Made by a program: the position numbers and the translations under genes
In this document: positions 3,575-61,300 of the stretch, piece after piece
Numbering within the stretch: position 1 is the first letter of the stretch
Layout: each line of letters begins with the position of its first letter
IMG/VR virus record: IMGVR_UViG_3300046171_000271
Direction: 5' to 3' (one strand)
DNA: 64,000 bases
From: a virus
Taxonomy: Duplodnaviria > Caudoviricetes
Notes under the pieces: model-generated
What the model was told of the DNA's origin: nothing
What the model saw: the letters and a program-made list of their open reading frames with translations, nothing else
Database searches by the model: none

Positions 3575-4000
3575 AATTGATACCTAACTCGTCTTCTGTG
3601 ATGATTTTAAATTCGATCAATCTATCAGCACACCATTCACGAGCTGCATTCCACTTTGCTTGATTAATAGCATAGGTTTTGCATTCAAACAAAGAAGACT
3701 TACTGGTTGGTTTTTTAGTTTGCTTCTTTGGTTTAACTTCAATAACATATGTCTTCACTTGTCCTGTACTTTCCTTAACTTTTATGATAAAATCGGGGAA
3801 GTATCTGTGAACTCTTTTATCAACTGGTGACAAGTATGGGATAAGAATTCTTCACTACCCCACTCAAGGATATTTTCAGTTAAGTCGCACCACTTACAGA
3901 AACGTCTTTCCCAGTTGCTTCTGCATATAATATTATTCGCATTTCCTTTATATTTTTTAGGATTGGAAGGATTGTAGATACTTTTCTTACTAACTCCCAT
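3558..4000 (-). CDS. gp4: head completion nuclease (frameshift ~3840)
   Basis: YNPSNPKKYKGN..RSNWERRFCKWCD..EWGSEEF + SPVDKRVHRYFPDF..IEVKPKKQT. Confidence 0.9.
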
Positions 4001-4029
4001 ACATAATATATACGGTAACAACTATTTAG

Positions 4030-4884
4030 ATGGCAACGGCAAAACCGACTAAAAAAACAGTTGCTGATTTAAAAACAAATATATTAAATCCAGCACTTAC
4101 ATCTACTTATGAATGTTCCTTTGCTTTTCCTGGTGCAGTCACAAAGTGGGCTAATAATAAAACGACTGGAATCGGCAATGGTATAGATGTAATTAAATCA
4201 CAAAATTTAACGATAGCATGTAGAGAGGCATCACTTCCTGGAACCTTCTTTAGCAACTCATGAGATGTTAAATGACTTTCACTGGTATTAGAGAAAGACA
4301 CGTATATAGAAGACAATATGATGACACTGCATCATTTACATTTTATGTTGATGTAAATTATGACTTGATTTTTATTTTTGAAAACTGGTTAAATTTTATT
4401 GTCAATCAAGATTCATCTGATCCCACTGTAAATAATCCAAATTATTCTTATAGGGTAAATTTTCCTAATGAGTATAAATCTCAAATTTTTATAAGAAAAT
4501 TCGAGAGAGATTATGCTGGAAGAAATTTGGAATATACATTTTTTGATGCATATCCAAGTTCAATTAATTCGATGCCAGTCACTTATGATGAATCTCAGGT
4601 TCTTCAGATGTACGGTAAACTTTAATTTCTCTCGTTATGTAATCAATGCTCCTAGTGGATTCACTCCATATTCAGAATTACTTGCTCCAGAAACTACTAC
4701 TAACCTCCCTGAAGAACAACAAAAATCATCTGTAATCAATGATGCAACTCCTATAGGAACTTTGGGAGGCACAGAAAATAATCGCGGTGTGGAAAGAGAT
4801 ACCGGATCAGGGGCCCCCCTAGATGGATCAACCGATCCAGAACCCATTACCACAAGACAGGCGCTTGGATTAGATCCTCTTTAA
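4030..4884 (+). CDS. tail-tube-fold baseplate initiator, gp54/gp19-like (2 frameshifts)
   Basis: CREASLPG..RRQYDDTASFTFYVD..FENW..YTFFDAYPSSINSMPVTYD..CTVNFNFSRY; precedes gp26. Confidence 0.65.
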
Positions 4885-4888
4885 GGAT

Positions 4889-4896
4889 AATAAATA
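4889..4896 (+). promoter_or_regulatory. T4-type late promoter (AATAAATA)
   Basis: NATAAATA 20 nt upstream of gp26 ATG. Confidence 0.7.
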
Positions 4897-4916
4897 CACA
4901 TACTGAATAACATATC

Positions 4917-5636
4917 ATGCCTTTACCAAAAATTTCTACACCAACTTATGAGTTGGAATTGCCTTCAACTGGAAAAACAATCAAGTTTCGTCCCTTTCTT
5001 GTCAAAGAAGAAAAGTTATTAGTTCTTGCCTTAGAAAGTAACGATACGAAAGAAATCACCAACGCTATTAAGGCAGTATTAAAGGATTGTATTCAAACAA
5101 GAGGTATCAAAGTAGAGAGTCTTCCTACTTTTGACATTGAATATTTGTTCCTTAATATTCGTGGCAAATCTGTTGGTGAAGAAATTGAGGTAAGTATTCT
5201 CTGTCCTGATGATGGGGAAACTTATGCTGAAGTACAAATTAATATTGATGATATAAATGTTTTAAAAGATAGTAAACACTCTAACAAAATTAAAATTGAT
5301 GATGACGTTGATGATGGAAATGAGATATCCCTCATTAAATGAGTTCATTAAGAATAATTTTGATTTTGAAACCACTAATCAAGTAGATCAGTCATTTGAT
5401 CTTATTGCATCTTGTGTAGATAAAATTTATTCTGAAGATGAAGTATGGGCATCTGATGATTTCTCTAAAAAAGAAATCATGGAATTTTTGGAGCAAATGA
5501 ATTCTTCTCAATTTAAAGAAATTGAAAAGTTCTTTTCTACTATGCCCAAGTTAAGTCATGAGATTGAGGTTTTAAATCCAAAGACTAATAAAAAGGAACA
5601 GTAGTTCTAGAGGGACTTTCAAGTTTTTTCGCATAG
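4917..5636 (+). CDS. gp26: baseplate hub subunit (frameshifts ~5300, ~5600)
   Basis: MPLPKISTPTYELELPSTGKTIKFRPFLVKEEKLL..FDIEYLFLNIRGKSVGE..MPKLSHEIEV. Confidence 0.9.
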
Positions 5637-5647
5637 CACTCTCCCAT

Positions 5648-5818
5648 ATGAATTTGGAGAGTTTCTTTAAATTAAATTTTTCTTTGATTCAGTTTCATAA
5701 ATACTCATTAACAGAGATTGAAAATATGATACCTTGGGAGAGAGATGTGTATGTCGAACTTCTGAGATCCCATTTAGAGGAAGAGAAACTTAAGATGCAA
5801 CAGCAGCAAGGGAAATGA
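5648..5818 (+). CDS. gp51: baseplate hub assembly catalyst (not in ORF track)
   Basis: MNLESFFKLNFSLIQFHKYSLTEIENMIPWERDVYVELLRSHLEEE; follows gp26. Confidence 0.85.
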   Translation: MNLESFFKLNFSLIQFHKYSLTEIENMIPWERDVYVELLRSHLEEEKLKMQQQQGK

Positions 5819-8455
5819 TTATTGACATCCCATCAAATTTAAAACTTCCACCAAATTTCCTCTATAGTAAAGGAGTATCTGGAAGATTCAGTGTCGAATT
5901 TGATTCTGATTTTGATGCTGTAATATATTTCGCTGGCAAATCTCCTTCTCCTAAAGGTAAAACTCAAAAACCTTTGATGGATTGGTTGATGAGTCTTGGA
6001 ATTACTTTTGATGATATTAGGGATCATCGCAATAAAATACTTGATGTGATAAGGCAACTAACAGATGTTGCCATGGATTCAAATTATGTTACAGTACCTC
6101 CTATACCTCAAAGTTTTACTGTAGAAAATGAAGAAGAAAGTGAGTCTGAAAATAATGAAAATTTAGATGCTCTTCTTGCATCTATTAGATCAAAAAAGAT
6201 GAGTCTGCCAGTGAGAGAGATTTGGATGCACTTCTTGCATCTGTCAGATCTGAGGAGACATCTACTACAATTAATCCTGCTAAATTTTTCGATAATGATG
6301 AATATGACGATTACTACAAAGAATTAGTTGATGAAGGTTCTATTGACGATCAAAATCTTTCATCAAATGAAAGACAAAGAGGAATTGCTGCCTTTAGAAG
6401 TAATAAATTAGATTTCAAAAAATTTGTTACTGATATACAATCATTAAAACCTGAAGTTGAACAACTTAATCAAGAACCTCTAACAATTAAAGAGCAGTTT
6501 TTTACTGCACCAAAGATTGAACCAGATAAGTTAATACCTTCTAAAGATAAAGAAGCACTTAAAATTGAACCAGATAAGTTAATACCTTCTAAAAATTCAG
6601 AAATAAGTGAGGAATTTAACGAAAAACTTGATGAGCTCATTGCAGTTATCAAGGATGATAATAAGTTAGAAGAAGAAAGTCAAAAATTTGAAAATAGAGA
6701 AAAACAAAGAGAGAAAAGAAAAAATAGAGAAAATAGAATAGAAAATAAAAAACGAACGAAATTATTTTCAATAGATCTGAAAAAAGGCACTGGAAAAGTC
6801 AGTAACTTTTTTGACGATTTGATGAACTTTTTAACATTTGCTGTATTAGGTGGTTTAGTATCTGGGTTATATAATTTTATTATGGATCCCGAAAATAATG
6901 AAAAGATTGAAGCAACCCAGAAATTTTTAAAAAATAATTGGCCTTTACTTTTAGGCGCTGCGGCATATTTTTTAACACCTTTAGGCGGACTTGTTAATTT
7001 TTTAGTGAAAACTATTGGGAGTTTTGCTATAAGACTTGGTGCTTTGATTCTTAAACATCCTTTATTAGCAGCTGCATTGGTTGGTGCAAGTGCCCTTGTC
7101 TTGGCAACAGCCGATGAGGCTGCTGGTGGTATTGTAAAAGAGATGGATGCAGAAGGAAGACTTCCAGGTGATCCAGGGTATGATGAACGCACTAAAGGAA
7201 AGATAACACTAGACAAATTGAAAGAAGTAAGGCCAGATTTAGTACAAGAAGCAGAAAAAGAGGGTACTACTAGCGAAGAGGAGATAGAAGCAGAAAAAAC
7301 AATTATCGGAGATGGTTTAGCTGGATTTAGTCTTGGTGGTATGAATATGGGAACAGACACTGTTCCTGCTTTATTAACTCCAGGTGAAGTTGTTATGAAC
7401 AAACCTGCTGTTGATGCAATTGGTGCAGAATCTCTCTTAGCACTTAATAGACAATTTGGCGGGCCTAATGCTAATCGCCCAAAATTTGGAAAAGTGCCAG
7501 GTTATGCTCTTGGTGGATATATTGGTGACAACCCTCCTAAATCCAGAGATCAATCTCTTTTAGCTTCTAATGTTAGTTTTGGTGGAAATGTTAATGTAAG
7601 TTATGGTGCTAATCCTGCACAAGCAACATATCAATCATTAAGAGATGCTATTAATAATGCAATTAGTAATCCAGGACAAGCACAGTCAGCATCTTCAGAG
7701 ATGGGTGAAACGCGGACTACAATAAGTGGCAACTTAAATTTAAGTGGTACATTTGGTGGTGGAAATGATGTACAGAGAGAAAAGAAAAAGAAGAAGAAAA
7801 AAGAAGAAGAAAGTCAGTATGATCCCGATAATCCTAAGCATAGACTTAAATCAGAGGTATTAAAAATAAGAGAAGAAAGACAAGCAGAACTTCGCAAAGA
7901 GAACAAATTCGAGACAAAAACTATGTTTGCAGTTCCTACTGGAACTGGTGGAAGATTTAACACTAGTCAAGCATCAGGATCCAATAAAGTGTCTCCATTT
8001 AAACCAGTAGGAACAAATATAACTGGCGGCACAAATTTTAGTAGACTGAAAATTATTGGAGATCCTACTGGCCCTGGATCAACTGGACGTGTAATTAGTG
8101 AAAAAAGATATGATAGACTCTTTGGATCCGGAGGAGTATATGCACCTGATGCTACCGGAACTAGAAAAACAGTGCCAAGTACTATTGGAAAACCATATGC
8201 GGGCAGTAAAATGGAGATGACAATACAAAATTTCGGTTTTCAAAGTTCTAGTAAAAATGCTCGTCCTGTAAATACTCCTAATATACCCACAGAAACAAGA
8301 AACTTCATGTTACCTCCAGTCGAAGTTTCAAGCAGTAAACCGAACATGGGTAGTAATCAAATGTAGATGTTCCATCATTTAATATTTCATCATCAAACAC
8401 GATGAGAGATTTTGTTTCTCGTGGTATTGGTATTCATGATCTGGTAGGTGCATGA
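5815..8455 (+). CDS. large tail/baseplate-hub protein, tape-measure-like (frameshifts ~6200, ~8360)
   Basis: charged coiled-coil, hydrophobic helical region, GTDTVPALLTPGEVVM motif; position after gp51. Confidence 0.55.
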
Positions 8456-11177
8456 TGAAATTAACTAATTTTAGTTCAGTTGTCAGTACATATAAAGAAA
8501 ATTTTCTTTTAAGAAAGAAAAGGTTTTTTGATGAAAAAAAACAAATAGGGGATGAAAAGAGAAAAGAAAGAGAAGAAAATATAGAAACCGTTAAGGCAGT
8601 AGAACCTCTTATAAAAACCAGCACGGGTAAAAGAACTAAACCAAATAATTTTCTTGATGGCATATACAGGTTTTTGGGTTTGCTTTAGCTGGATTAGTAT
8701 TGAGTAATCTTGATAGTATAATTTCTATAGCATCTGAAATTTATAAAAAAATAAAAGAACTTAAAGAAGGAATTGAAAATTTTGTAACTAGTATTCAAGA
8801 TACAATTGATTCATTTTATAGTGGTTTTGAATCCTTCAAACAAGACTTAGACGACTTATTATCTCCTATTACAAATGCAGATTTGTCTGTAATTGAACCA
8901 TTTAAAGAGCAACTTGAAGCAGTTTTATTTGCTACATTAGGAGTTGTTGATAATCTTTTTAAAAAAATTCCGGATGGATCACCATCGCCCAAACCATCAC
9001 CTTCAACGCCACAGCCACCAACACCACGTCCTATCTCAAGATTTAGAGCTCCTGGACAATCTCTTGCTGGGGGTACATTTCAAGAAAATTTAAACAGACA
9101 ACAACTAACAAGACAAAGAATGCTGTCGCCAAGAGGCCAGACAGGCCCTCTTGGTAGACTTAACATGATGAGAAGAGGATTTGGAGCTCGTCTTGAAACT
9201 GGAACTGCATTTAGGGGGGTGGGAAGTGGTGCTCAAAGGGGTGCTGTAAGGACATTTAGACAAATAAAAAATCTTAAAAATATTGGTAGAATTGGTGGAC
9301 GTGGACTTGGAGGAAGAATTCCTATTATTGGCCCTCTTCTTTTAGGTTATGATGCTTATATGGAGGATTTAGATGGTGATGGAAATCCAGATAGAAATAT
9401 TGATAAGTCATTATTTGTTGCAGGTGGAGCTGCTATCGGAGGTTTTTTAGGAACATTCATTCCAATTCCAGTACTGGGTTCAATTTTAGGAACATCAATT
9501 GGTGGATACGTTGGAGATTTATTTTATACCTTACTTAAAGGTGGTGGAGCAAAAGAAGTAGGACGAAAACTAAAACAAGATGTTTTAAAAATTATTGATG
9601 CTGGAAATTTAGTTAAAGATTGGATATTAAGAGGTATTGGTAATATACAAAATCAAGACGGTGGAATACTTGGCAATATTCCAATTGGTATACCATTTAC
9701 TAATATGAAGTTTAAACTTGGTGGATGGGCAGAAATATTAAATCCACTTGGTGATCCTTTTAAAAAATTATCTATTCTTAAAAAATCATTCTTCTCAGGA
9801 CAGAATGTAGGAGATTCAACAGTCACAGCATTTATAGGAGATGATTCTTCCGATGATGATTCTCCTGATGATGATTTTCCTGATGGTGGAAGAAATATAG
9901 GATCTCAAAATATAATTCCAAACAGCGCCGAGGAGATAAGAATTGCTGCAGCTTTATATACTGAAGGAGGTAGGGGAAAATCAGCCACAGACGTTTTACA
10001 AGTAGTAGCAAATAGAAAAGCAAGTGGGTACAAGGGTTATAAAGGAGACAATTCTTTTACTGGTTTATTGGCAGCGGATAATCAGTTTCAAGGTGTATAT
10101 GACAGAGGACAAGATGCGTTTGTAAAAATACAAACCCTTGCTGATGCTGCAAGATGGGCTGGGACTACAGAGCAAGTAATTAAGGGTTATATTGCTGATA
10201 TGCGAGATCGAGGTTATAGATCAGATTCTGCAAGATTTGTTAAGGGAGCAGTCGAATTTAGAGGATCTCCCGCAACTGTTTTAAAAGTGAATAGTGACAA
10301 TAATCCAAATAATAATATACCTGCAGATGCAAAAGGAAGAATACGAAACAGTGCATGGCGTGGTGGATCTGGTGATAATCAATTCTTTACAACGCCTGAT
10401 GATCAGGGGGCTGGAACTAAGGCTTCTCCTATACTTTATAAGGGGGTTACTACTACTCTTAATAGGAAAAATGAAAATAATACAAAAACAACTTATGCTA
10501 TTCTTTGCTATGGAACAAATGATTTTAGCTTGAGTGAATCTGAGATTAAGAAGAGAGCCACTAGAATGATTAGGGACTTGAAGTCAAAGGGGTATAATGT
10601 TGTCGTTGTTCCACCAAGTCCTCAACTTTATATTAGCAGAACTAAACAATCATACAAAGCACCATATAGAGGTGTTCTTTCTGCAGCTGCTGAGACAGGA
10701 GTTGATATAGAATTTGGAGTATATGCACCAACAGATCAACTGGGAAAATATGTACACCTTACACAGCGTGAAGCCGATAGAATCCGTAAAGATTATCAAC
10801 CAGCAATTTATGTTGGTGATAGCAATGCGGTGAAAATTGCAGGTAAACTTAAAGAAGCAAAAGCGCAAATAAAGGGTAAATCCATCACCACATCTGTGGA
10901 TGGTTATGGCGGAGATAAAATCCAAGCATTGATTAATAACATAATTTCATCATCACCAACTATAACACCAACCAGACTAACAGTACCATTAGAAGAAATA
11001 TCAAGAAATTTAGACAGTCCTGAGGGAAGAGAATATTTTAGACGTTTAGATGCAGGAGAACTTACGGGCACTCTTGTTAGTAGTGCGGGATTAAATCAAC
11101 CTACTACATATTCTATGAACGGTATACAAACTAGAGAAATAATTAACAATATCATATTACCTATAAGCGTTGCCTAA
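8452..11177 (+). CDS. tail-associated protein with cell-wall-hydrolase-like and SGNH-like domains (frameshift ~8685)
   Basis: Gly-rich helices; AAALYTEGG..DVLQVVANR..NQFQGV; CYGTND and YVGDS motifs. Confidence 0.65.
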
Positions 11178-40026: not shown

Positions 40027-40282
40027 ATTTGGTTTCAATATGCTATTGGCAACTACAAAAATGAAACGTCCTAGTTTACTTGATTCAACAGGTTCAGTTC
40101 AATTTCCTTTTGAAACATTTCCCTGGAGACTTGAACTAAAAGACGTAGTGTGTCACTTTGAGTGTAAAGAACACATGATAAAGTATCTGAACAGATACGA
40201 ATTTAAACCAAAAGATGTGAAAATTTCTAATCGTTATGGCGAAAAGTATCAGTACAGAGGTAAAAAAAAGAAATCTACATAG
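40004..40282 (+). CDS. small hypothetical protein
   Basis: FPFETFPWRLE..CHFECKEHMIKYLNRY. Confidence 0.65.
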   Translation: MTKSTGNKFGFNMLLATTKMKRPSLLDSTGSVQFPFETFPWRLELKDVVCHFECKEHMIKYLNRYEFKPKDVKISNRYGEKYQYRGKKKKST

Positions 40283-40781
40283 TGGTAGATGCGAAACAGG
40301 TATGAGTGATGAATTGCCTATTAAACCGCACACACAAATCTTAGTTCTCAACAATAGTTACGAACCAATTAATGTTACAAATTGGAAACGTGCTATTGTT
40401 CTTCTTCTTAAGGAAAAAGCACAAGCATTATCAAAACGAGTCATCAGATTAGTTAATTATATTCGTATCCCTTTTGCAAAAATCATCGCTCATACACCAT
40501 CAAGAGCGATGATTTACAAGAGGGACAATAATAAGTGTCAGTATTGTGGGGCTACAAGATCACTTACTATTGATCATGTTATCCCCAGAAGTCGTGGAGG
40601 TGGGGACACTTGGGATAATTTAGTTATTGCATGTTCATCATGTAATGTCAAGAAAGGAGATAAATTTCTTGAACAAACTAACATGAAACTTGCAAGAAAA
40701 CCTTTTACCCCCTATAATAAGGTACAATTTTCATTATCTGGTACTCAAGTGCCTGAATGGCAGGAGTTTTTATTTGTATGA
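40236..40781 (+). CDS. HNH endonuclease (likely start 40302)
   Basis: LVLNNSYEP..IYKRDNNKCQYCG..LTIDHVIPRSRGGGDTWDNLVIACSSCNVKKG. Confidence 0.9.
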   Translation: MAKSISTEVKKRNLHSGRCETGMSDELPIKPHTQILVLNNSYEPINVTNWKRAIVLLLKEKAQALSKRVIRLVNYIRIPFAKIIAHTPSRAMIYKRDNNKCQYCGATRSLTIDHVIPRSRGGGDTWDNLVIACSSCNVKKGDKFLEQTNMKLARKPFTPYNKVQFSLSGTQVPEWQEFLFV

Positions 40782-40978
40782 AAGAAAAAGTTAGAGCACA
40801 AGTAAAGAGTCGCTGGTATTATATTTTCTGGGGACTTGCAACAATTTTTGTAGTATGGGGGCAGATTTATGTTGGAACTGGTTACCGTATTGTGGCAAAT
40901 AAAATGATTGAACTATTAAATAAGGTAGACGGTGTTTTATTGTATAAAAGTGAAGAATCGCTTAAAGATTACTTTTAA
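40757..40978 (+). CDS. small membrane protein
   Basis: WYYIFWGLATIFVVWGQIYVG. Confidence 0.6.
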   Translation: MAGVFICMKEKVRAQVKSRWYYIFWGLATIFVVWGQIYVGTGYRIVANKMIELLNKVDGVLLYKSEESLKDYF

Positions 40979-41049
40979 TGTAAAGAAATATAAATTAAGT
41001 TAGTATATCACCATAATAGTGATATAATACTGTTAATTAAGAAACTCTC

Positions 41050-41313
41050 ATGACTCTTCCAAAGGATAAAAAACCAAAAAAAGAGGAAATTGATAGCATG
41101 AAAATTGCAGTAAAAGAGGTTGATATCAGAGCAATTCATCCAGATAAAATGGAAGATTTCGCTGCACATATGGTAGAACAATTAAAAGAAGAAACACAAA
41201 GTTTTTATGATAAACTATGGGAACTTTTGGAAACTGAACTTGGTGATACTGTTTTCTGTGATCAGATGGCAGATAGAATCTATGATTTGGTAAAGGAACA
41301 CTACAATGACTGA
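41050..41313 (+). CDS. hypothetical protein
   Basis: MTLPKDKKP..AIHPDKMEDFA. Confidence 0.6.
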   Translation: MTLPKDKKPKKEEIDSMKIAVKEVDIRAIHPDKMEDFAAHMVEQLKEETQSFYDKLWELLETELGDTVFCDQMADRIYDLVKEHYND

Positions 41314-41340
41314 AAAAGAAGGACAACTAAAAGAATCTCA

Positions 41341-42192
41341 ATGAATCAAATTTTGTTATCTGATTGTGTGTCGGGGATGAAGACACTTGGTAGTGAATCT
41401 ATTGACTTATGCGTCACATCCCCTCCTTATGATGATCTTCGTTCATATAATGATAGTTCATCATGGAACTTTGATACATTTAAGAATGTCGCCACTGAAC
41501 TTTATCGTGTGATGAAGATTGGCGGTGTTGTTGTATGGGTGATTGGAGATGCTACAGTCAAAGGTAGTGAAACTGGTTCTAGTTTCCGTCAGGTTCTACA
41601 CTTTATGGATCTTGGGTTTCTATTACATGACACCATGATCTATGAGAAAAATGGTAGTCCTTTTCCAGCAAAGAGGACAGGTAACAGATATTCACAAATC
41701 TTTGAGTATATGTTTGTCTTCTCAAAGAAAACTAAACCAAAGACTGCACATTTGCTGTGTGATAAACCAAATCGATGGGCAGGATATACACACTTTGGCA
41801 AGGGAACTATCAGGACTAAAGATGGACAACTAAAAGATAGGCAAATTAAACCCATCCCGGAATTTAGTCCAAGAAATAACATCTGGAAATATAATACAGG
41901 CAAAGGATACTCAACTAAAGATGATGTTGCCTTTGAACATCCCGCAATCTTTCCCGAAAAGTTAGCTAAAGATCATATTCTTACATGGAGTGATGAGGGA
42001 GATATAGTTTTAGATCCTTTTATGGGTTCAGGAACTACTGCTGTTTGTTGTTTAGAAACGAAGAGAAAGTTTATAGGATTTGAGATTGATAAAACTTATC
42101 ATGACATCTGCACTAGGAGATTAGAACAGCATGTGACAGTTGAAGAAGCGTCACTACCGGAGTCGAACCCTCTGGAGGATGCTCTATATTGA
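41341..42192 (+). CDS. beta-class amino DNA methyltransferase (N4-C likely)
   Basis: motif IV DLCVTSPPY N-terminal; HPAIFPEKL; motif I VLDPFMGSGTT C-terminal. Confidence 0.92.
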   Translation: MNQILLSDCVSGMKTLGSESIDLCVTSPPYDDLRSYNDSSSWNFDTFKNVATELYRVMKIGGVVVWVIGDATVKGSETGSSFRQVLHFMDLGFLLHDTMIYEKNGSPFPAKRTGNRYSQIFEYMFVFSKKTKPKTAHLLCDKPNRWAGYTHFGKGTIRTKDGQLKDRQIKPIPEFSPRNNIWKYNTGKGYSTKDDVAFEHPAIFPEKLAKDHILTWSDEGDIVLDPFMGSGTTAVCCLETKRKFIGFEIDKTYHDICTRRLEQHVTVEEASLPESNPLEDALY

Positions 42193-45465: not shown

Positions 45466-45621
45466 ATGACACCTCACAAATACGATCACATACTAATCCA
45501 TAGAAATCCATACAATAACAAACCAATCACAATCGAATACAGAGATCCTAAATTCATACAAACACGAATCTATTTTCAGTGTGAGAGTGATTATTTCAGG
45601 AGTAAAAAGACAAAAGTATAA
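45466..45621 (+). CDS. 51 aa hypothetical protein
   Basis: MTPHKYDHILIHRNPYNNKP..YFRSKKTKV. Confidence 0.5.
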   Translation: MTPHKYDHILIHRNPYNNKPITIEYRDPKFIQTRIYFQCESDYFRSKKTKV

Positions 45622-45665
45622 CTGTCACAGTGGGGGTTGCTAAACCCCTTTTTTAATGCAATAAT
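45608..45665 (+). promoter_or_regulatory. early promoter element copy 4
   Basis: AGACA-N10-TGTCACA; TTGCTA..CAATAAT. Confidence 0.65.
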
Positions 45666-45671
45666 ATATTC

Positions 45672-46554
45672 ATGAAAAACATTCATCTCCAACACCCCGA
45701 AGATTCTATTCTCTCGGGTGATCTTTCCGTTCTCGATTGGTTCCTGACTCCTTCACATCTTTCTGTAAAGATGGACGGATCACCAGCTATTGTGTGGGGT
45801 AAAAATCCTGCCACTGGTAATCATTTTGTCGGAACTAAATCTGTCTTCAATAAAGTTAAAATCAAGATCAATGAATCGCATGATGACATCGACAGGAATC
45901 ATGAAGATGCAGTCGCTGAGATCCTTCATGCTTGCTTCGATTATCTTCCTTTCACGGATCACGTCATCCAAGGTGATTTTATTGGTTTCGGAGGGAGTGA
46001 TACTTTCACTCCTAATACACTCACTTATGTCTTCGACGAGACTGTAACTGAAAATATCATCGTAGCACCTCATACTTTCTATGAATGTGAGAATGATCTG
46101 CGCGATGCTATTGCACATCCGATGGAGTATTTCAACATTCCAAGCACCGAGCATGTGAAAATGGTGCAACCAAAGTGTTGGGAAGTTGATGAAGATTTTG
46201 ATGAAATTGTTGGTTTCGCTCGTCAGATGGCACAACTGGTGAAGTTTGTTGACGAGAAAGAAGCAGCTAAACTTAGAATCGAACTGAACAAATGTATCCG
46301 CAGAAGGTGTCGATGTGGTGCCAGATACATTCGACAATTCTATGCTGATTTCATTCTGGTTCTTGATCAAATCTATCAAGGATGATGTGTTGTTTATGTG
46401 TCGCAACAATGGTGCTAAAGCATACATTGGCAACAAACAATGTGAGGGTGAAGGTTATGTTCGCAGCAATGAGTTTGGCATCTATAAGTTAGTCAATCGC
46501 TATGAGTTTTCTCGCGCAAACTTCAACAATATGAAGGCATGGGGACAGTCCTGA
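45672..46554 (+). CDS. protein with ligase/nucleotidyltransferase motifs (frameshift ~46300)
   Basis: SVKMDGSP (I), VIQGDF (III), EGEGYV (IV), YKLV (V). Confidence 0.6.
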
Positions 46555-46621: not shown

Positions 46622-46984
46622 ATGACTACTGAATTTGCTGATTTCGTTGCAACTCAAGACGCTCGCAATCAAATTCAACTTAACATCAGAAAGTATTGCC
46701 TGATGTTGTGTGATTGCCTGCTGCAGGACATGCAAAGCAAGCATCCCAATTGTAATTATGATTTTTATATTAAAGAAGGTGGGCGAAAGTATCACAAAAT
46801 TGTGATGAATACTGGTAATCAACGTTCTGTCCATGCTTTCGTTGATAAGAAGACTGGTGAAGTTTACAAGGCAGCATCATGGAAAGCACCTGCAAAGCAC
46901 GTTCGTTTTAACTTGCTAGAGATCAATTCCCGTGAGGAATGTTTTGTTCGTGCAGATTGGGCAGGAGATTATCTCTACATGTGA
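46622..46984 (+). CDS. hypothetical early protein
   Basis: GRKYHKIV..SVHAFVDKKTGEVYKAASWKAPAK. Confidence 0.75.
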   Translation: MTTEFADFVATQDARNQIQLNIRKYCLMLCDCLLQDMQSKHPNCNYDFYIKEGGRKYHKIVMNTGNQRSVHAFVDKKTGEVYKAASWKAPAKHVRFNLLEINSREECFVRADWAGDYLYM

Positions 46985-47057: not shown

Positions 47058-48229
47058 ATGTTTTCCCTCCGTCCACATCAGCAGCGTGCATGTGAATCAA
47101 TGCGGAAATATGAGAAGGGAACTGTCATCATCCCCGACAGGTGGTGGCAAGACGATGTGCATGATTCAGGATACATTGACTGCGTTCGATGATAGTGTGA
47201 ATCGCACAGTTGTTGTAGTTGCACCGCGTATTTTGTTGGCGGAGCAGTTATGTTCTGAGTTCTTAGAACATATCACAAACGTCAGTGTTCTTCATGTTCA
47301 CTCAGGGGAGACACATTTCTTCAGCACAACTAAAACAAAGCAGATTAAGTTGTGGAGTAAGTACACTCGTGGGAGAAAACTTATCTTCACGACTTACAAC
47401 AGTTTGCAGAAGATTGTTGATGCTGAGATTGACATTCACACCGCTTACTTTGACGAAGCACATAACAGTGTGAAGCGTAACTTCTTCGCTCCGACAGAAC
47501 AACTTAGTCAATCTAATTCACGGGCGTTCTTTTTCACTGCGACACCAAAGTACAGCAGCACAGTGTTCAAACCTGGCATGAATATGCCTGAGATTTATGG
47601 TAACACAATCTGCAATGTGCCTGCTCCTGAGTTAGTCGAAGGTGGATACATCTTGCCGCCCAAAGTTGTAGTGAAAGAGATGGAAATGGCAGAGAAAGGT
47701 TTGAACTATGATCGTGATGCAAATTATATGCTTCATGCGATCAATGATGAGAATGTTGATAAGATCTTGATTGCTGCTCGTACTACCAAACAGATCATCG
47801 GGTTGGTATCACAAACTGATTTTTGTGTTCAGTTACAAGCAGCGTGGTTATTCTTGGATGATGATCACATCGAAGACTGGTGCAATTATCGACGGTGAGA
47901 AGGTTGATCGTGAGACATTCTTCGAGACATTGAATACATGGGGCAAGACAAAAGGCAAGCGGTTTGTTGTCATTCACCATAGCATTTTGTCGAAGGTATC
48001 AATGTCAATGGATTGGAAGCAGTTCTTTTCATGCGAAACATGGACTACATTGGTATCAGTCAAACTATCGGACGTGTTATCAGATTGGGTGACAAGTCTA
48101 AGCAGTTTGGTTTAGTTGTTGTCCCTGTATTTGACAAGGTTGGTATCACTACCAGTCGCAAAGTTCAAGCAGTTGTTGATACCGTATTTCAACAAGGTGA
48201 ACCCGCCTATTTCTACCATCAAACGCTAA
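47058..48229 (+). CDS. SF2 (DEAH) helicase, type III Res-like (about 4 frameshifts)
   Basis: LRPHQQRA, PTGGGKT, VVAPR, FDEAH, TATP, QTIGRVIR. Confidence 0.85.
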
Positions 48230-48233
48230 TCTC

Positions 48234-48761
48234 ATGCTTAATTTCAAAACTTTTGAACTGAATTGTTTAGCACATCTTATTCCAAATCTTGTGGAATATA
48301 CTGACAACAACCTACGCTTTCCTAAAGCAGGAGAAATGATTGAAAAAGCGTATGAAGTTTATAGTAACGGACAACTGAAAAGAGTTAATTAACCTGGTGT
48401 TGATCTTATCACTCCCGATGGTGTAACTTATGAGTCAAAAGTAACACAATTCAGGAACAAATCTCAGATGGCAGTGAGAAGTTTAATTCTTAAGAATCGT
48501 AGAGCAGCAACACCTCATGAAGACAAATTAGCAGATTATTTTATCATCACTGACATTAAAAAGGGACAGCATGTTGTATTCCATCATCGAAACTTTTTAA
48601 TTTCAAAGACAATGGTGCAACACTTACTGCAAGTGCTAATCCTACCTATCGATGACTTTTTCTTGACTGGATGTAAATCAAAAGATACAAGTTCTGATGA
48701 TTATTTTGCAGAATCTGAACAATTTGATTATGAGTATATCAGAAGTTTTCGCAGTGCATGA
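48234..48761 (+). CDS. putative PD-(D/E)xK nuclease with one in-frame TAA (48390-48392)
   Basis: GEMIEKA..PGVDLITPDGVTYESK..ADYFII; same frame before and after the stop. Confidence 0.5.
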
Positions 48762-58357: not shown

Positions 58358-61300
58358 ATGATATCAACCGATTTACAGAGAGTACAGATTCAGGACATTA
58401 TCGAATACCAATTACCTGCATTTGTAAGGGATGATTTTCCCTTGGTTGGTGAATTTTTAAAGCAGTATTATATTTCACAAGAATATCCTACCGCACCGTC
58501 TGATATTGTACAAAATATTGACGAATATGTTAAATTAGAGACTCTTCTTGATACTCAGGATGAAACAAATTTATCTGAAGACATTTCATTTTCCGATACA
58601 GAAATTCCTGCAGGATTTAATATTGAATCGAATCAATATGGAACATATCAGTTTCCAGAGAGATATGGTTTAATTAAAATTGATGATGAAATAATTTTAT
58701 ATACTTCTAAAGATAGAAATTCTTTTAATGGTTGCATTCGCGGATTTAGTGGGGTAACTAAACTAGGCAATGATAATAAAAGATTAACATTTTCATCATC
58801 AGAATCTGCATCTCATTTACAAGGTGCTAAAATAATTAATCTTAGTAATATTTTACTTAAAGAATTCTTAGAAAAGTTAAAGAAACAAATTGCACCAGGG
58901 TTTGAAGGAAGAAAAATCAATTCTGATGTAAATCAAAAACTTTTCTTATCAAGATCTAAAGATTTTTATGAATCTAAAGGAACTGATGAGTCATTCAAAA
59001 TTTTATTTGCTGCACTTTATGGAGAAAAAGTAGAAGTTATAAAACCTAAAGAATTTTTGTTTAGGGCTTCTGATGCTCAATTTAGAAAAACTAGAGATAT
59101 TGTTGTAGAATCAATTGTAGGAGATCCTTCAAAATTAAAGAATCAAACACTTTATCAAAATGCATTCCCAGAATATGGTATTACGGAAGCATATGCTACA
59201 GTTGTAGATTGCGAAAAGATTGCAAGAGAAAATAAGACTTACTATCAATTGAGTGTAGACTTTGATTTCAGTAAAGATATAGATCTTACTGGTGGAACCA
59301 TATTTGGAAAATTTTCTGCTCATCCTAAAACTCAAAACACGATTTTAGTTTCAACTGGTTCATCAGTAATTGATGTTGATTCAACAATTGGATTTCCAGA
59401 AAAAGGAGAAATTTTTGTTAATGGCCAGAGTGGAATTTTAACTTATCGTTCAAAAACTATCAATCAGTTTACTGAAGTTGGTTTAGCAAACACTACTACT
59501 TTCGGAACAAACTATAACATTAATCCAGGAACTGAATTAAATCTAAACGTTAGTGCATATGGGTTTGAAGGAATTAGCGCCGTCTCAGTCGCTTCTAGCG
59601 ATGTCTCAGCAGTAGGTATAGGCACTACCTCAAAGATTGAAGTTAGAATAGGAAAAGTTTTAGGAGAGAATGTAATTTATGATGACACCTCATATTTCAC
59701 TAATAACGATAACATTAGAATTAAGTCACTTGGTATCAATGCACCAAGAGAATTAGATAATAGTTGGTTTATTAACGTAAATCCCAAATATAGTATTAAG
59801 AATATATCAATTATTGATTCTTCTAATTTTACGTATTCTATTGAGACAATAGCAAGAAATAATTTTAGGATAGGAGATAAAGCAAGTGTAATTCAATCAA
59901 ATGGTGTTGAAAAAACGGGTGTTATAATTGACGTTGCTTCTGCGAATACCTTCACATTTGCAAGAGCAGGAGAATTATTAGGAACTAAATTTTTTATTAG
60001 AAGAGACGTTCTTAAACCAGTTGTAAGTAATTTAAATGTAAATGAATACTCTTACATTGAGAAATCTTTTGCAAATGTTCAAAACACGTATACAAAGTTT
60101 GATGGCGATGTTTTGGTTGCATCATCTTCTATTCCATCATATCATGATAGTCCATTAAACTTTTATGATGGAAAAGTCTCTTTAAATGGAGAGTATAATG
60201 GAGAACTTTTTACAGTAGAACGCAATCATGGTTTTTATACTGGCGATAGAGTTTATTATGAACCATCAATCAAAAGCAATACCATTTCTATCGATAATCA
60301 AGATGTAGTAGTAGATTCAGTTATAAGCAAGTTTCCTGAGATTGATTCGGGTGTTTATTATATTAAAAGAATAAGCGATAAACAATTCAAGATTGCTTCG
60401 AGTGTCGCCAATTTATATAATGACACTTTTGTTTCAGTATCCGGTATTGTTACTGACAACTATTTCTGTCCTAGTAATTTTTATAATAAAAATTTAAAAC
60501 ATCAAAAATTATACAGACAATTTAAATCTCCAGTTAATGATGGAAGAGAATATACAACTCTTCCTGGTAAAACTGGAATGCTTGTTAATGGTGTTGAAAT
60601 TTTAAATTATAAATCTGGAGATAGTGTATATTTTGGAAATATCAATAGCGTAACAGTTTCTGCTCCAGGAAGCGGTTATGATATTATTAATCCGCCTATT
60701 CTTTCTATTCAGGATTCTACTGGAATTGGTGCTACTGGACTTGTTAATGTTAAAGGTTCTTTAGAAAGAATTGAAATTTTAGATCCTGGATTTGATTACG
60801 TATCAGAACCAATAATTACAATTACTGGGGGAAATGGATCGGAAGCTAATGCACACGCTAATACTAAATTAGTCACACATTCAGTTTCTTTTTATTCAAC
60901 ATCAGATAATGATCAAGTTGGACTTTCGTCTGACACGATTGGATTTACTACTTTTCATAGATTTAGAGAATCTGAAAGGGTAGTTTATAAAACAGATGGA
61001 CAAACTGCTATTGGTGGTATTACTGATAATGCAGAATATTATGTAAAACTGGTTGATCAAAAAACGATTAAATTATTTGCAAATGCAAGTGATTCCATTA
61101 CCGGGACTAATCCTATCAACATAACTTCAAATGGAGAAGGAGTTCATAGATTTGAATCGTTCAGTAAAAAACGTGTTCTCTCTGATATTGTAGTAACATC
61201 ATCAGGGTATAATTATGAAAATAAAAAGAGAGTATCTGGAGTTTCAGGAATAAACACAGCATTAAATCAAATTAATATTTTTAATCATGGGTTCTACTCT

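Follow-up and report, generated by a model that had tools for sequence, protein, structure and literature searches.

The nucleotidyltransferase domains of polynucleotide ligases share six motifs, with the lysine of motif I becoming adenylylated (PMC7261155, PMC6379707). RNA ligases fall into six clades that carry diverse flanking modules, and an OB domain is present in all DNA ligases (PMC7261155, PMC6379707). T4-like cyanophages are among the ocean's most abundant viruses. Since 2005 they have been described as being without DNA ligase, RNA ligase and polynucleotide kinase, with the host assumed to supply these activities (PMC1079782, PMC2984593, PMC7824862). [quoted passage not shown]

We analysed a gene of the Pfam family DUF6267 in a stretch of viral DNA of 64,000 nucleotides (IMG/VR record IMGVR_UViG_3300046171_000271), hereafter the window. 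The window phage is a T4-like cyanomyovirus (Kyanoviridae-type) of roughly 201 kb, one protein encoded in the window being located on a contig of 200,936 nt. Its nearest isolates are Synechococcus phage S-SM2 and relatives, with DNA-level matches in short patches only. We predict, with a probability of about 0.6, that DUF6267 represents a divergent, previously unnamed clade of lysine-adenylylating polynucleotide ligases without an OB domain. Gene structure, family membership, fold class, invariant residues and phyletic pattern are shown below; the chemistry, nucleotide donor and substrate are predicted. We found no prior description of DUF6267 in the literature; the account of RNA repair systems by Burroughs & Aravind (2016) may mention it.

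The gene is made up of the following parts:

45672..46301, + strand: codons 1-210 of the DUF6267 gene, frame 0 (ORF list, Pfam, alignments and restored translation)
46302..46305, + strand: frameshift site AGAA, which is one codon (AGA, AAA or GAA) in every relative and so holds one extra base
46303..46554, + strand: codons 211-293 of the DUF6267 gene and the TGA stop, frame +1 (Pfam, alignments and model)

Two overlapping open reading frames cover this segment, 45672-46385 in frame 0 and 46315-46554 in frame +1. The first matches DUF6267 (PF19782) at profile positions 1-257 of 376 (E 2.4e-60, 205.3 bits) and the second at positions 310-376 of 376 (E 1.3e-13, 51.5 bits), both exceeding the curated cut-off of 27 bits. 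Both also match phrog_455 ('unknown function'; E 6.8e-94 and 3e-22). Since the two frames belong to the same family, they form one gene, and positions 45672-46554 are a single gene of 293 codons split by one extra base. A tblastn comparison with the S-SM2 orthologue SSM2_070 (302 aa) maps the join between ...LNKCIR and EGVDVVPDTF.... At the shift the window reads ATC CGC AGAA GGT. DNA alignment to the closest IMG/VR loci (91-94% identity) shows a codon that varies among relatives, being AGA in L012, AAA in L014 and L020, and GAA in L011 and L017. The extra base at 46302-46305 is the sole indel within 1,020 bases aligned to L012, and the related IMG/VR loci encode a single-frame protein in 80 of 80 cases, none having the extra base. 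The sequence-only reading of this DNA had merged the two frames into one frameshifted gene, and the shared family and the single indel bear this out. Removal of base 46302 yields a 293-residue protein that is identical at 253 of 293 positions (86%), with no gaps, to P0003, the intact metagenomic relative that served as our reference for identity. All 18 family-invariant residues are retained in the restored protein, six of them downstream of the shift.

Translated as given, frame 0 stops at 46383-46385, and the product would be a 237-residue fragment lacking motifs IV and V. It is possible, but on balance unlikely, that the gene is dead in this phage and makes this fragment only, with programmed +1 frameshifting as a minor variant. 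The sequence as given is indeed out of frame, and a conserved neighbour is likewise broken, which could mean that the region is decaying:

47058..48761, + strand: gene for a ResIII/DEAD helicase, a conserved neighbour, frame-broken in the window

Compared with four independent relatives, the helicase gene has six single-base indels, at 47135, 47839, 47992, 48206, 48566 and 48647. Its frame pieces, however, all stay open and are 92-94% identical to the relatives, and the DUF6267 gene is, aside from one base, gapless and complete in its invariant residues. The extra base moreover lies within a codon that varies among relatives, as expected of a consensus or assembly artefact. The two genes together hold seven one-base indels within 2.4 kb of coding sequence that is otherwise well conserved, and because these indels are isolated we favour a local problem of sequence quality over decay. 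The extra base is most likely a sequence error; a real and very recent inactivating lesion is a distinctly less probable explanation. We rejected programmed +1 frameshifting, which we regard as very improbable, because the site ATC-CGC-A-GAA holds no slippery sequence and the shift is shared by none of the 80 relatives. The stretch from 46.3 to 48.7 kb, with its roughly seven single-base indels, calls for caution in labelling its genes as pseudogenes.

The restored protein contains the ordered motifs of a covalent nucleotidyltransferase:

within 45672..46301, + strand: N-terminal HLQHPED segment (family form H-L-E-H-P-E-D)
45768-45779, + strand: motif I, K33-M-D35-G (KMDG)
within 45672..46301, + strand: motif Ia-like VGTK56S
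45966-45980, + strand: motif III-like IQGD102F
within 45672..46301, + strand: motif IIIa-like TY119VF
within 45672..46301, + strand: APH134T, then the start of the helical insert
within 46303..46554, + strand: rest of the helical insert, including K236
46444-46461, + strand: motif IV, E258-G-E260-G261-Y-V (EGEGYV)
46483-46500, + strand: motif V, Y-K272-L-V..R276 (YKLV at 46483-46494), then the C-terminal helix

KxDG, IQGDF, EGEGYV and YKLV, which had been picked out from the letters as a set in ligase order, are all located where they had been claimed. Among 1.84 billion representatives searched, 1,259 proteins matched at E<=1e-3; from these we aligned 45 diverse members that are 30-89% identical to P0003 (mean column identity ∼29%). 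Only 18 columns are invariant in this alignment, and six of them (K33, D35, D102, E260, G261 and K272) are among the 19 residues that make up the four motifs (hypergeometric P = 4e-4), so the motif set goes beyond chance. The remaining invariant residues are H8 (of the N-terminal segment), G43, F52, K56, K61, L85, Y119, H134, N206, K236, R276 and N283. In motif I, Gly-36 is conserved in at least 90% of the 45 members alongside the invariant K33 and D35. D102 (in Q-G-D) and Y119 lie on model strands 98-106 and 118-120, with motifs III and IIIa being assigned by order only. Two features speak against a lysine-dependent ligase and weaken this reading: the motif III residue is an aspartate (D102), where ligases usually have glutamate, and motif V reads K-L-V-x-R in place of K-x-K, its second lysine being replaced by V274 and the invariant R276 following two residues further on.

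An AlphaFold2 model calculated on the family alignment (pLDDT 93.7, pTM 0.88) comprises a nucleotidyltransferase core whose strands bear the motifs. Two short helices are all that precedes the motif I lysine K33. A three-helix insert (residues 177-241, ∼65 residues) lies between motif IIIa and motif IV, and the extra length of 'long' family members (360-416 aa) is located in this insert. Beyond motif V there is one 17-residue helix (276-292), and the protein ends 21 residues after K272. The model has no OB domain, motif VI, flanking or DNA-binding domain, in agreement with the minimal architecture first read from the sequence.

A Foldseek search of the PDB with this model gave no match at E<=1e-3, and ∼47 of the best 50 rows are ATP-dependent DNA ligases, RNA ligases or capping enzymes, in line with the ligase fold that had been anticipated. 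VIA-align, which is independent of Foldseek, placed covalent nucleotidyltransferases at all of ranks 1-26 among 48,161 representative chains, with RNA ligases first. In a second look at the Foldseek candidates, NgrRnl (Naegleria gruberi RNA ligase) obtained values of 8.2-8.6 and T4 Rnl1 (K99M) 7.9; every one of the first 29 entries is an RNA ligase, and no DNA ligase exceeds 5.9. [quoted passage not shown]

We judged the correspondence of individual residues by two indirect checks, aligned ranges and hhalign, and not by residue-level superposition. Model residues 1-282 match T4 Rnl2 3-234, which places K33 on K35. Model residues 1-286 match NgrRnl 142-339; here K33/D35 come within four residues of K170/D172, and E260/K272 (spacing 12) fall near E312/K326 (spacing 14). 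In NgrRnl, K170 is the nucleophile and D172 the metal ligand of motif I, E312 is the motif IV metal ligand, and K326 makes the motif V phosphate contact (PMC7261155). When we aligned the family profile by hhalign to a 10-member Rnl1 alignment assembled from phage records, we obtained two co-linear local matches with E 0.016 and 0.063, each at a probability below 3% (2.8%). The first pairs P0003 26-60 with T4 Rnl1 92-123 (K33-K99, D35-D101, G36-G102, K56-K119), and the second pairs P0003 255-273 with T4 Rnl1 222-241 (E260-E227, G261-G228, K272-K240). The matched Rnl1 residues other than K99 are known as essential positions from mutational work on Rnl1. K99 is the Rnl1 nucleophile (title of PDB 5TT6). 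The higher structural rank of RNA ligases over DNA ligases and the alignment of the motif I/Ia and IV/V stretches with T4 Rnl1 uphold the likeness to an RNA ligase that the sequence-only reading had seen.

At the sequence level, PDB searches with a single protein (phmmer) and with the 45-member profile (hmmsearch) returned nothing relevant, and hhalign against single T4 Rnl1, Rnl2 and gp30 sequences gave weak local motif matches only, with no significant probability. One of the 45 members matched PF09511 (Rnl1), at E 0.023 and under the cut-off; none matched PF01068 (at E<=10) or PF09414. Atlas feature similarity of DUF6267 to PF09414 clusters is only 0.75-0.79. By these profile searches, DUF6267 has no significant sequence-level tie to any ligase family and falls outside the Pfam families of Rnl1 and Rnl2. 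Because the fold and motifs I, IV and V agree with the superfamily, while an OB domain, flanking domains and HMM matches are missing, we place DUF6267 in it as a candidate new clade.

By analogy, Lys33 of motif I (K-x-D-G) would attack the α-phosphate of a donor nucleotide (probably ATP), giving an enzyme-(lysyl-N)-AMP intermediate. Asp35, Asp102 and Glu260 would hold the catalytic metal, and Lys272 together with Arg276 the phosphates. AMP would then be passed to the 5'-phosphate end of a polynucleotide, followed by sealing to a 3'-OH. A nucleotidyltransferase core on its own, elaborated by the ∼65-residue three-helix insert, would amount to an RNA-ligase-like architecture.

The distribution of the family is consistent with such a role. 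A tblastn search located DUF6267 in 467 phage records, nearly all from cyanomyoviruses. S-SM2, P-SSM2, S-RIM2, ACG-2014e and the pelagiphage HTVC008M have one DUF6267 gene each, and no match to PF01068, PF01653, PF09414 or PF09511 at E<=1 was found in these five genomes. T4 has gp30, Rnl1 and Rnl2 and no DUF6267; Synechococcus phage B3, the only Kyanoviridae genome we encountered without DUF6267, carries an Rnl1-like gene and a weak PF01068 match instead. This phyletic pattern, with DUF6267 present where canonical ligases are absent, supports a real ligase role. As it is the only ligase-like gene in the five genomes examined, DUF6267 is probably the source of polynucleotide-sealing activity in these Kyanoviridae.

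An RNA-repair ligase akin to T4 Rnl1, which would reseal tRNA or other RNA cut by ribonucleases of the host or of rival phages, is a tentative assignment for the substrate. The RNA ligases that fill the top 29 structural rows argue for it, as do the motifs aligned with T4 Rnl1, the Rnl1-like gene of phage B3, which is without DUF6267, and the missing OB domain, which typifies RNA ligases (PMC7261155). HTVC008M has a P-loop kinase gene of the PNK/PSTK clade (Zeta_toxin 3e-13, AAA_33 4e-11, PSTK 2.5e-10) between DUF6267 and the cytidyltransferase gene described below. This kinase linkage is, however, found in one genome only; no end-healing kinase, phosphatase or phosphoesterase was recognised among those ORFs of the window that were scanned around the gene, and according to the literature cyanomyoviruses have no pseT (PMC1079782). 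A counterpart of the C-terminal tRNA-specificity domain of Rnl1 is also missing, and the near-universal presence of DUF6267 in Kyanoviridae would be more readily expected of a core function than of a defence counter-measure. Repair of tRNA against anticodon nucleases, which the sequence-only reading had put forward, may be one of several options.

We consider it doubtful that DUF6267 is instead a replicative or recombinational ligase of DNA (or RNA-primer/DNA) nicks that replaces T4 gp30 despite having no OB domain, perhaps aided by a partner protein. The gene does lie just after uvsX-gp41(-mazG), within the replication module, in S-RIM2, ACG-2014e and HTVC008M, travels with the ResIII/DEAD helicase in the window's clade, and occurs in five genomes that have no canonical DNA ligase and no other ligase for Okazaki fragments. 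The missing gp30 is treated as an open gap in the literature (PMC2984593, PMC7824862), and the best structural match, NgrRnl, seals duplex nicks (PMC7261155). Yet every known DNA ligase has an OB domain after its nucleotidyltransferase domain (PMC7261155), and DUF6267 ends ∼20 residues past motif V; host LigA could also perform nick sealing. The adjoining gene does not supply the domain:

46622..46984, + strand: gene for a DUF7717 protein of 120 aa, conserved downstream neighbour in the window's clade

The DUF7717 model consists of a long helix and a five-stranded sheet, which is not an OB fold, and has no recognisable fold relative. A stand-alone protein resembling a ligase DNA-binding domain (AAX44695.1) was reportedly pointed out by Iyer et al. 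We rejected this protein (PSSM2_317, DUF6433) as a neighbour: in P-SSM2 185 kb separate it from the DUF6267 gene, and the window encodes no homologue of it. We divide the probability of the ligase reading between RNA repair, placed first, the sealing of nicks in DNA or hybrids, placed second, and a ligase for another substrate, which takes the rest.

DUF6267 is associated with a second domain. In S-PM2 and many uncultured phages it is fused to a cytidylyltransferase-like (PF01467) domain, and the fusion is found in 10 of 21 longer metagenomic relatives (blastp E 1e-18 to 1e-45). A cytidylyltransferase-like gene adjoins DUF6267 in S-RIM2 and ACG-2014e and is two genes away in HTVC008M. The partner is of the HIGH type and has weak matches to NMN/NaMN adenylyltransferases (E 1e-3 to 1e-4). 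We found no prior description of this link in the literature, and such a partner has no place in any ligase pathway known to us; it might, for instance, regenerate NAD+ for a ligase that uses this donor. The tight association could point to a different chemistry. DUF6267 would then join no strands and would be a lysine nucleotidyltransferase that acts with its weakly NMNAT-like partner in the use or recycling of NAD+ or a dinucleotide, or in adenylylating or capping a nucleic-acid end or a small molecule. The fusions, the adjacent genes and the partner's weak matches would all fit this, which we nevertheless hold to be quite improbable. The partner's family matches lie under curated cut-offs, the two genes are separated in the window's clade, where DUF7717 follows DUF6267 in place of the partner, and the full ligase motif set is invariant, including the motif IV and V residues that are used in all three ligase steps. 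To our knowledge, a non-ligase lysine nucleotidyltransferase with such a partner has no precedent.

Upstream of the gene we located two elements that overlap:

45632..45649, + strand: hairpin GGGGGTTGCTAAACCCCT followed by a T-run, terminator-like, the 'dyad' of the sequence-only reading
45637..45665, + strand: sigma-70-like TTGCTA, 17-nt spacer and TG-extended AATAAT (9/12 consensus match)

The sequence-only reading had given the gene a dyad promoter of its own. The sigma-70-like site is there, and its putative -10 element ends 6 nt before the ATG. The dyad, though, is terminator-like: with its GC hairpin and T-run it looks like the terminator of an upstream 51-codon ORF (45466-45621), and it is conserved in relatives with a G-run of varying length. 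No Shine-Dalgarno sequence is visible before the ATG at 45672. Since promoter-like sites in the region do not exceed the number expected from shuffled sequence, an early gene with its own promoter, as suggested by the consensus match alone, is plausible and no more.

If the ligase reading is true, a conserved single-copy enzyme with a ligase fold changes the picture of ligase-less cyanophages, and a compact OB-less ligase would present a new architecture, relevant to the evolution of ligases and perhaps useful as a reagent. The ligase question for these phages is directly testable with one recombinant protein. As a far-reaching and rather speculative version, for which the odds are low, DUF6267 could be the long-missing ligase of the Kyanoviridae, the T4-like phages of cyanobacteria and SAR11, and a seventh structural class of ATP-dependent polynucleotide ligase, whose specificity module is not a flanking domain but the helical insert within the nucleotidyltransferase domain itself. 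Such an enzyme would seal nicks of replication or recombination without an OB domain and would, in many phages, work as a unit with the fused HIGH-type nucleotidyltransferase.

Among the closest known relatives are SSM2_070 of S-SM2 and PSSM2_075 of P-SSM2 ('T4-GC 71', hypothetical), which are orthologues with 65% and 59% identity, respectively, over the N-terminal part. Both are intact, unlike the window copy, and the annotation of PSSM2_075 omits 26 N-terminal codons. In S-SM2 the neighbours are again DUF7717 and the helicase; in P-SSM2, T4-GC 68, the cluster of the DUF7717 gene of S-SM2, is nearby.

Among characterized enzymes, T4 Rnl1 (PF09511) is likewise a phage enzyme without an OB domain, and shares with DUF6267 the K-x-D-G motif I (K-x-D-G-S in Rnl1), the motif Ia lysine, and a motif IV E-G-Y-V followed 12-13 residues later by the motif V lysine, as aligned by hhalign. 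Unlike Rnl1, DUF6267 has no C-terminal tRNA-specificity domain and contains the three-helix insert between motifs IIIa and IV, a K-L-V-x-R rather than K-x-K motif V, and a distinct N-terminal H-x-E-H-P-E-D segment. In most genomes examined we recognised no Pnk partner. It differs from the Rnl2 family (T4 RNA ligase 2/REL1, PF09414) in having neither the C-terminal helical domain nor a PF09414 match. Rnl5, the nick-sealing RNA ligase of Naegleria gruberi and Deinococcus, also has K-x-D-G and a comparable distance between the motif IV glutamate and the motif V lysine (14 in NgrRnl vs 12). Its N-terminal OB-like domain, which helps to bind the ATP γ-phosphate (PMC7261155), is missing in DUF6267, whose motif I starts at residue 33, and identity is ∼13%. 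Compared with T4 gp30 and the minimal ATP-dependent DNA ligases (PF01068; Chlorella virus and Lig E type), DUF6267 has no OB domain, motif VI, DNA-binding domain or PF01068 match and stands structurally closer to RNA ligases; it would fill the ligase gap in the replication modules of T4-like cyanophages.

In front of the ligase-like DUF6267 gene, an AATAAT hexamer resembling a -10 element, with a TG upstream, stops 6 nt short of the ATG. No Shine-Dalgarno sequence is visible before this ATG (window 45637-45674), and the mRNA may have no leader or almost none. The -35 element falls within the hairpin of the preceding terminator, and the G-run of the hairpin 5' of the gene (window 45631-45636) varies in length among relatives, reading GGGGG in the window and GGGG in the related phage locus L011. 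The gene and its surroundings comprise:

Window 40236-40781: HNH endonuclease, 5' of the DUF6267 gene
Window 41341-42192: N6/N4 DNA methyltransferase, 5' of the DUF6267 gene
Window 45637-45674: -10-like element and start of the DUF6267 gene
Window 46622-46984: DUF7717 gene (120 aa), immediately 3' of DUF6267
Window 47058-48761: ResIII/DEAD helicase gene, its frame disrupted by six single-base indels when set against related loci

The endonuclease and methyltransferase (window 40236-42192) share an accessory region with the DUF6267 gene.

In P-SSM2, the orthologue PSSM2_075 (L086, 4001-4891) is annotated from record position 58678 versus a homology start at 58600, and the deposited protein thus lacks the first 26 conserved residues, among them an invariant H-x-E-H-P-E-D segment.

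DUF7717 directly follows DUF6267 in most related loci with room for it. Its confident predicted model comprises a helix (residues 3-40) and a five-stranded sheet and matches no known fold; invariant residues include K56, Y57, K83, P90-A91-K92 and R95. Compared with four independent IMG/VR relatives, the helicase gene carries indels at 47135 (+1), 47839 (+1), 47992 (-1), 48206 (+1), 48566 (-1) and 48647 (+1). All frame pieces are open and 92-94% identical to the relatives, and the stretch looks like a low-quality assembly region.

We compared DUF6267 neighbourhoods in other Kyanoviridae:

L089 (S-RIM2): 5001-8964
L088 (ACG-2014e): 3977-5736
L090 (HTVC008M): 3974-8167

In all three, DUF6267 follows uvsX-gp41(-mazG) and a 'cytidyltransferase' (PF01467) gene adjoins it or lies nearby; in HTVC008M, gp129, a P-loop kinase of the PNK/PSTK clade, is located between the two. 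S-PM2 and 10 of 21 long metagenomic relatives carry DUF6267 and PF01467 as a single fusion.

Synechococcus phage B3 (Kyanoviridae) lacks DUF6267. It has a weak match to the DNA ligase family PF01068 (record position 75234-75392) and encodes an Rnl1-like protein, annotated as hypothetical:

L097 (Synechococcus phage B3): 341-1534, Rnl1-like gene

The ligase content of B3 complements that seen in the other five genomes, which carry one DUF6267 gene each and no canonical ligase family. The Rnl1-like protein shares 25% identity with T4 Rnl1.
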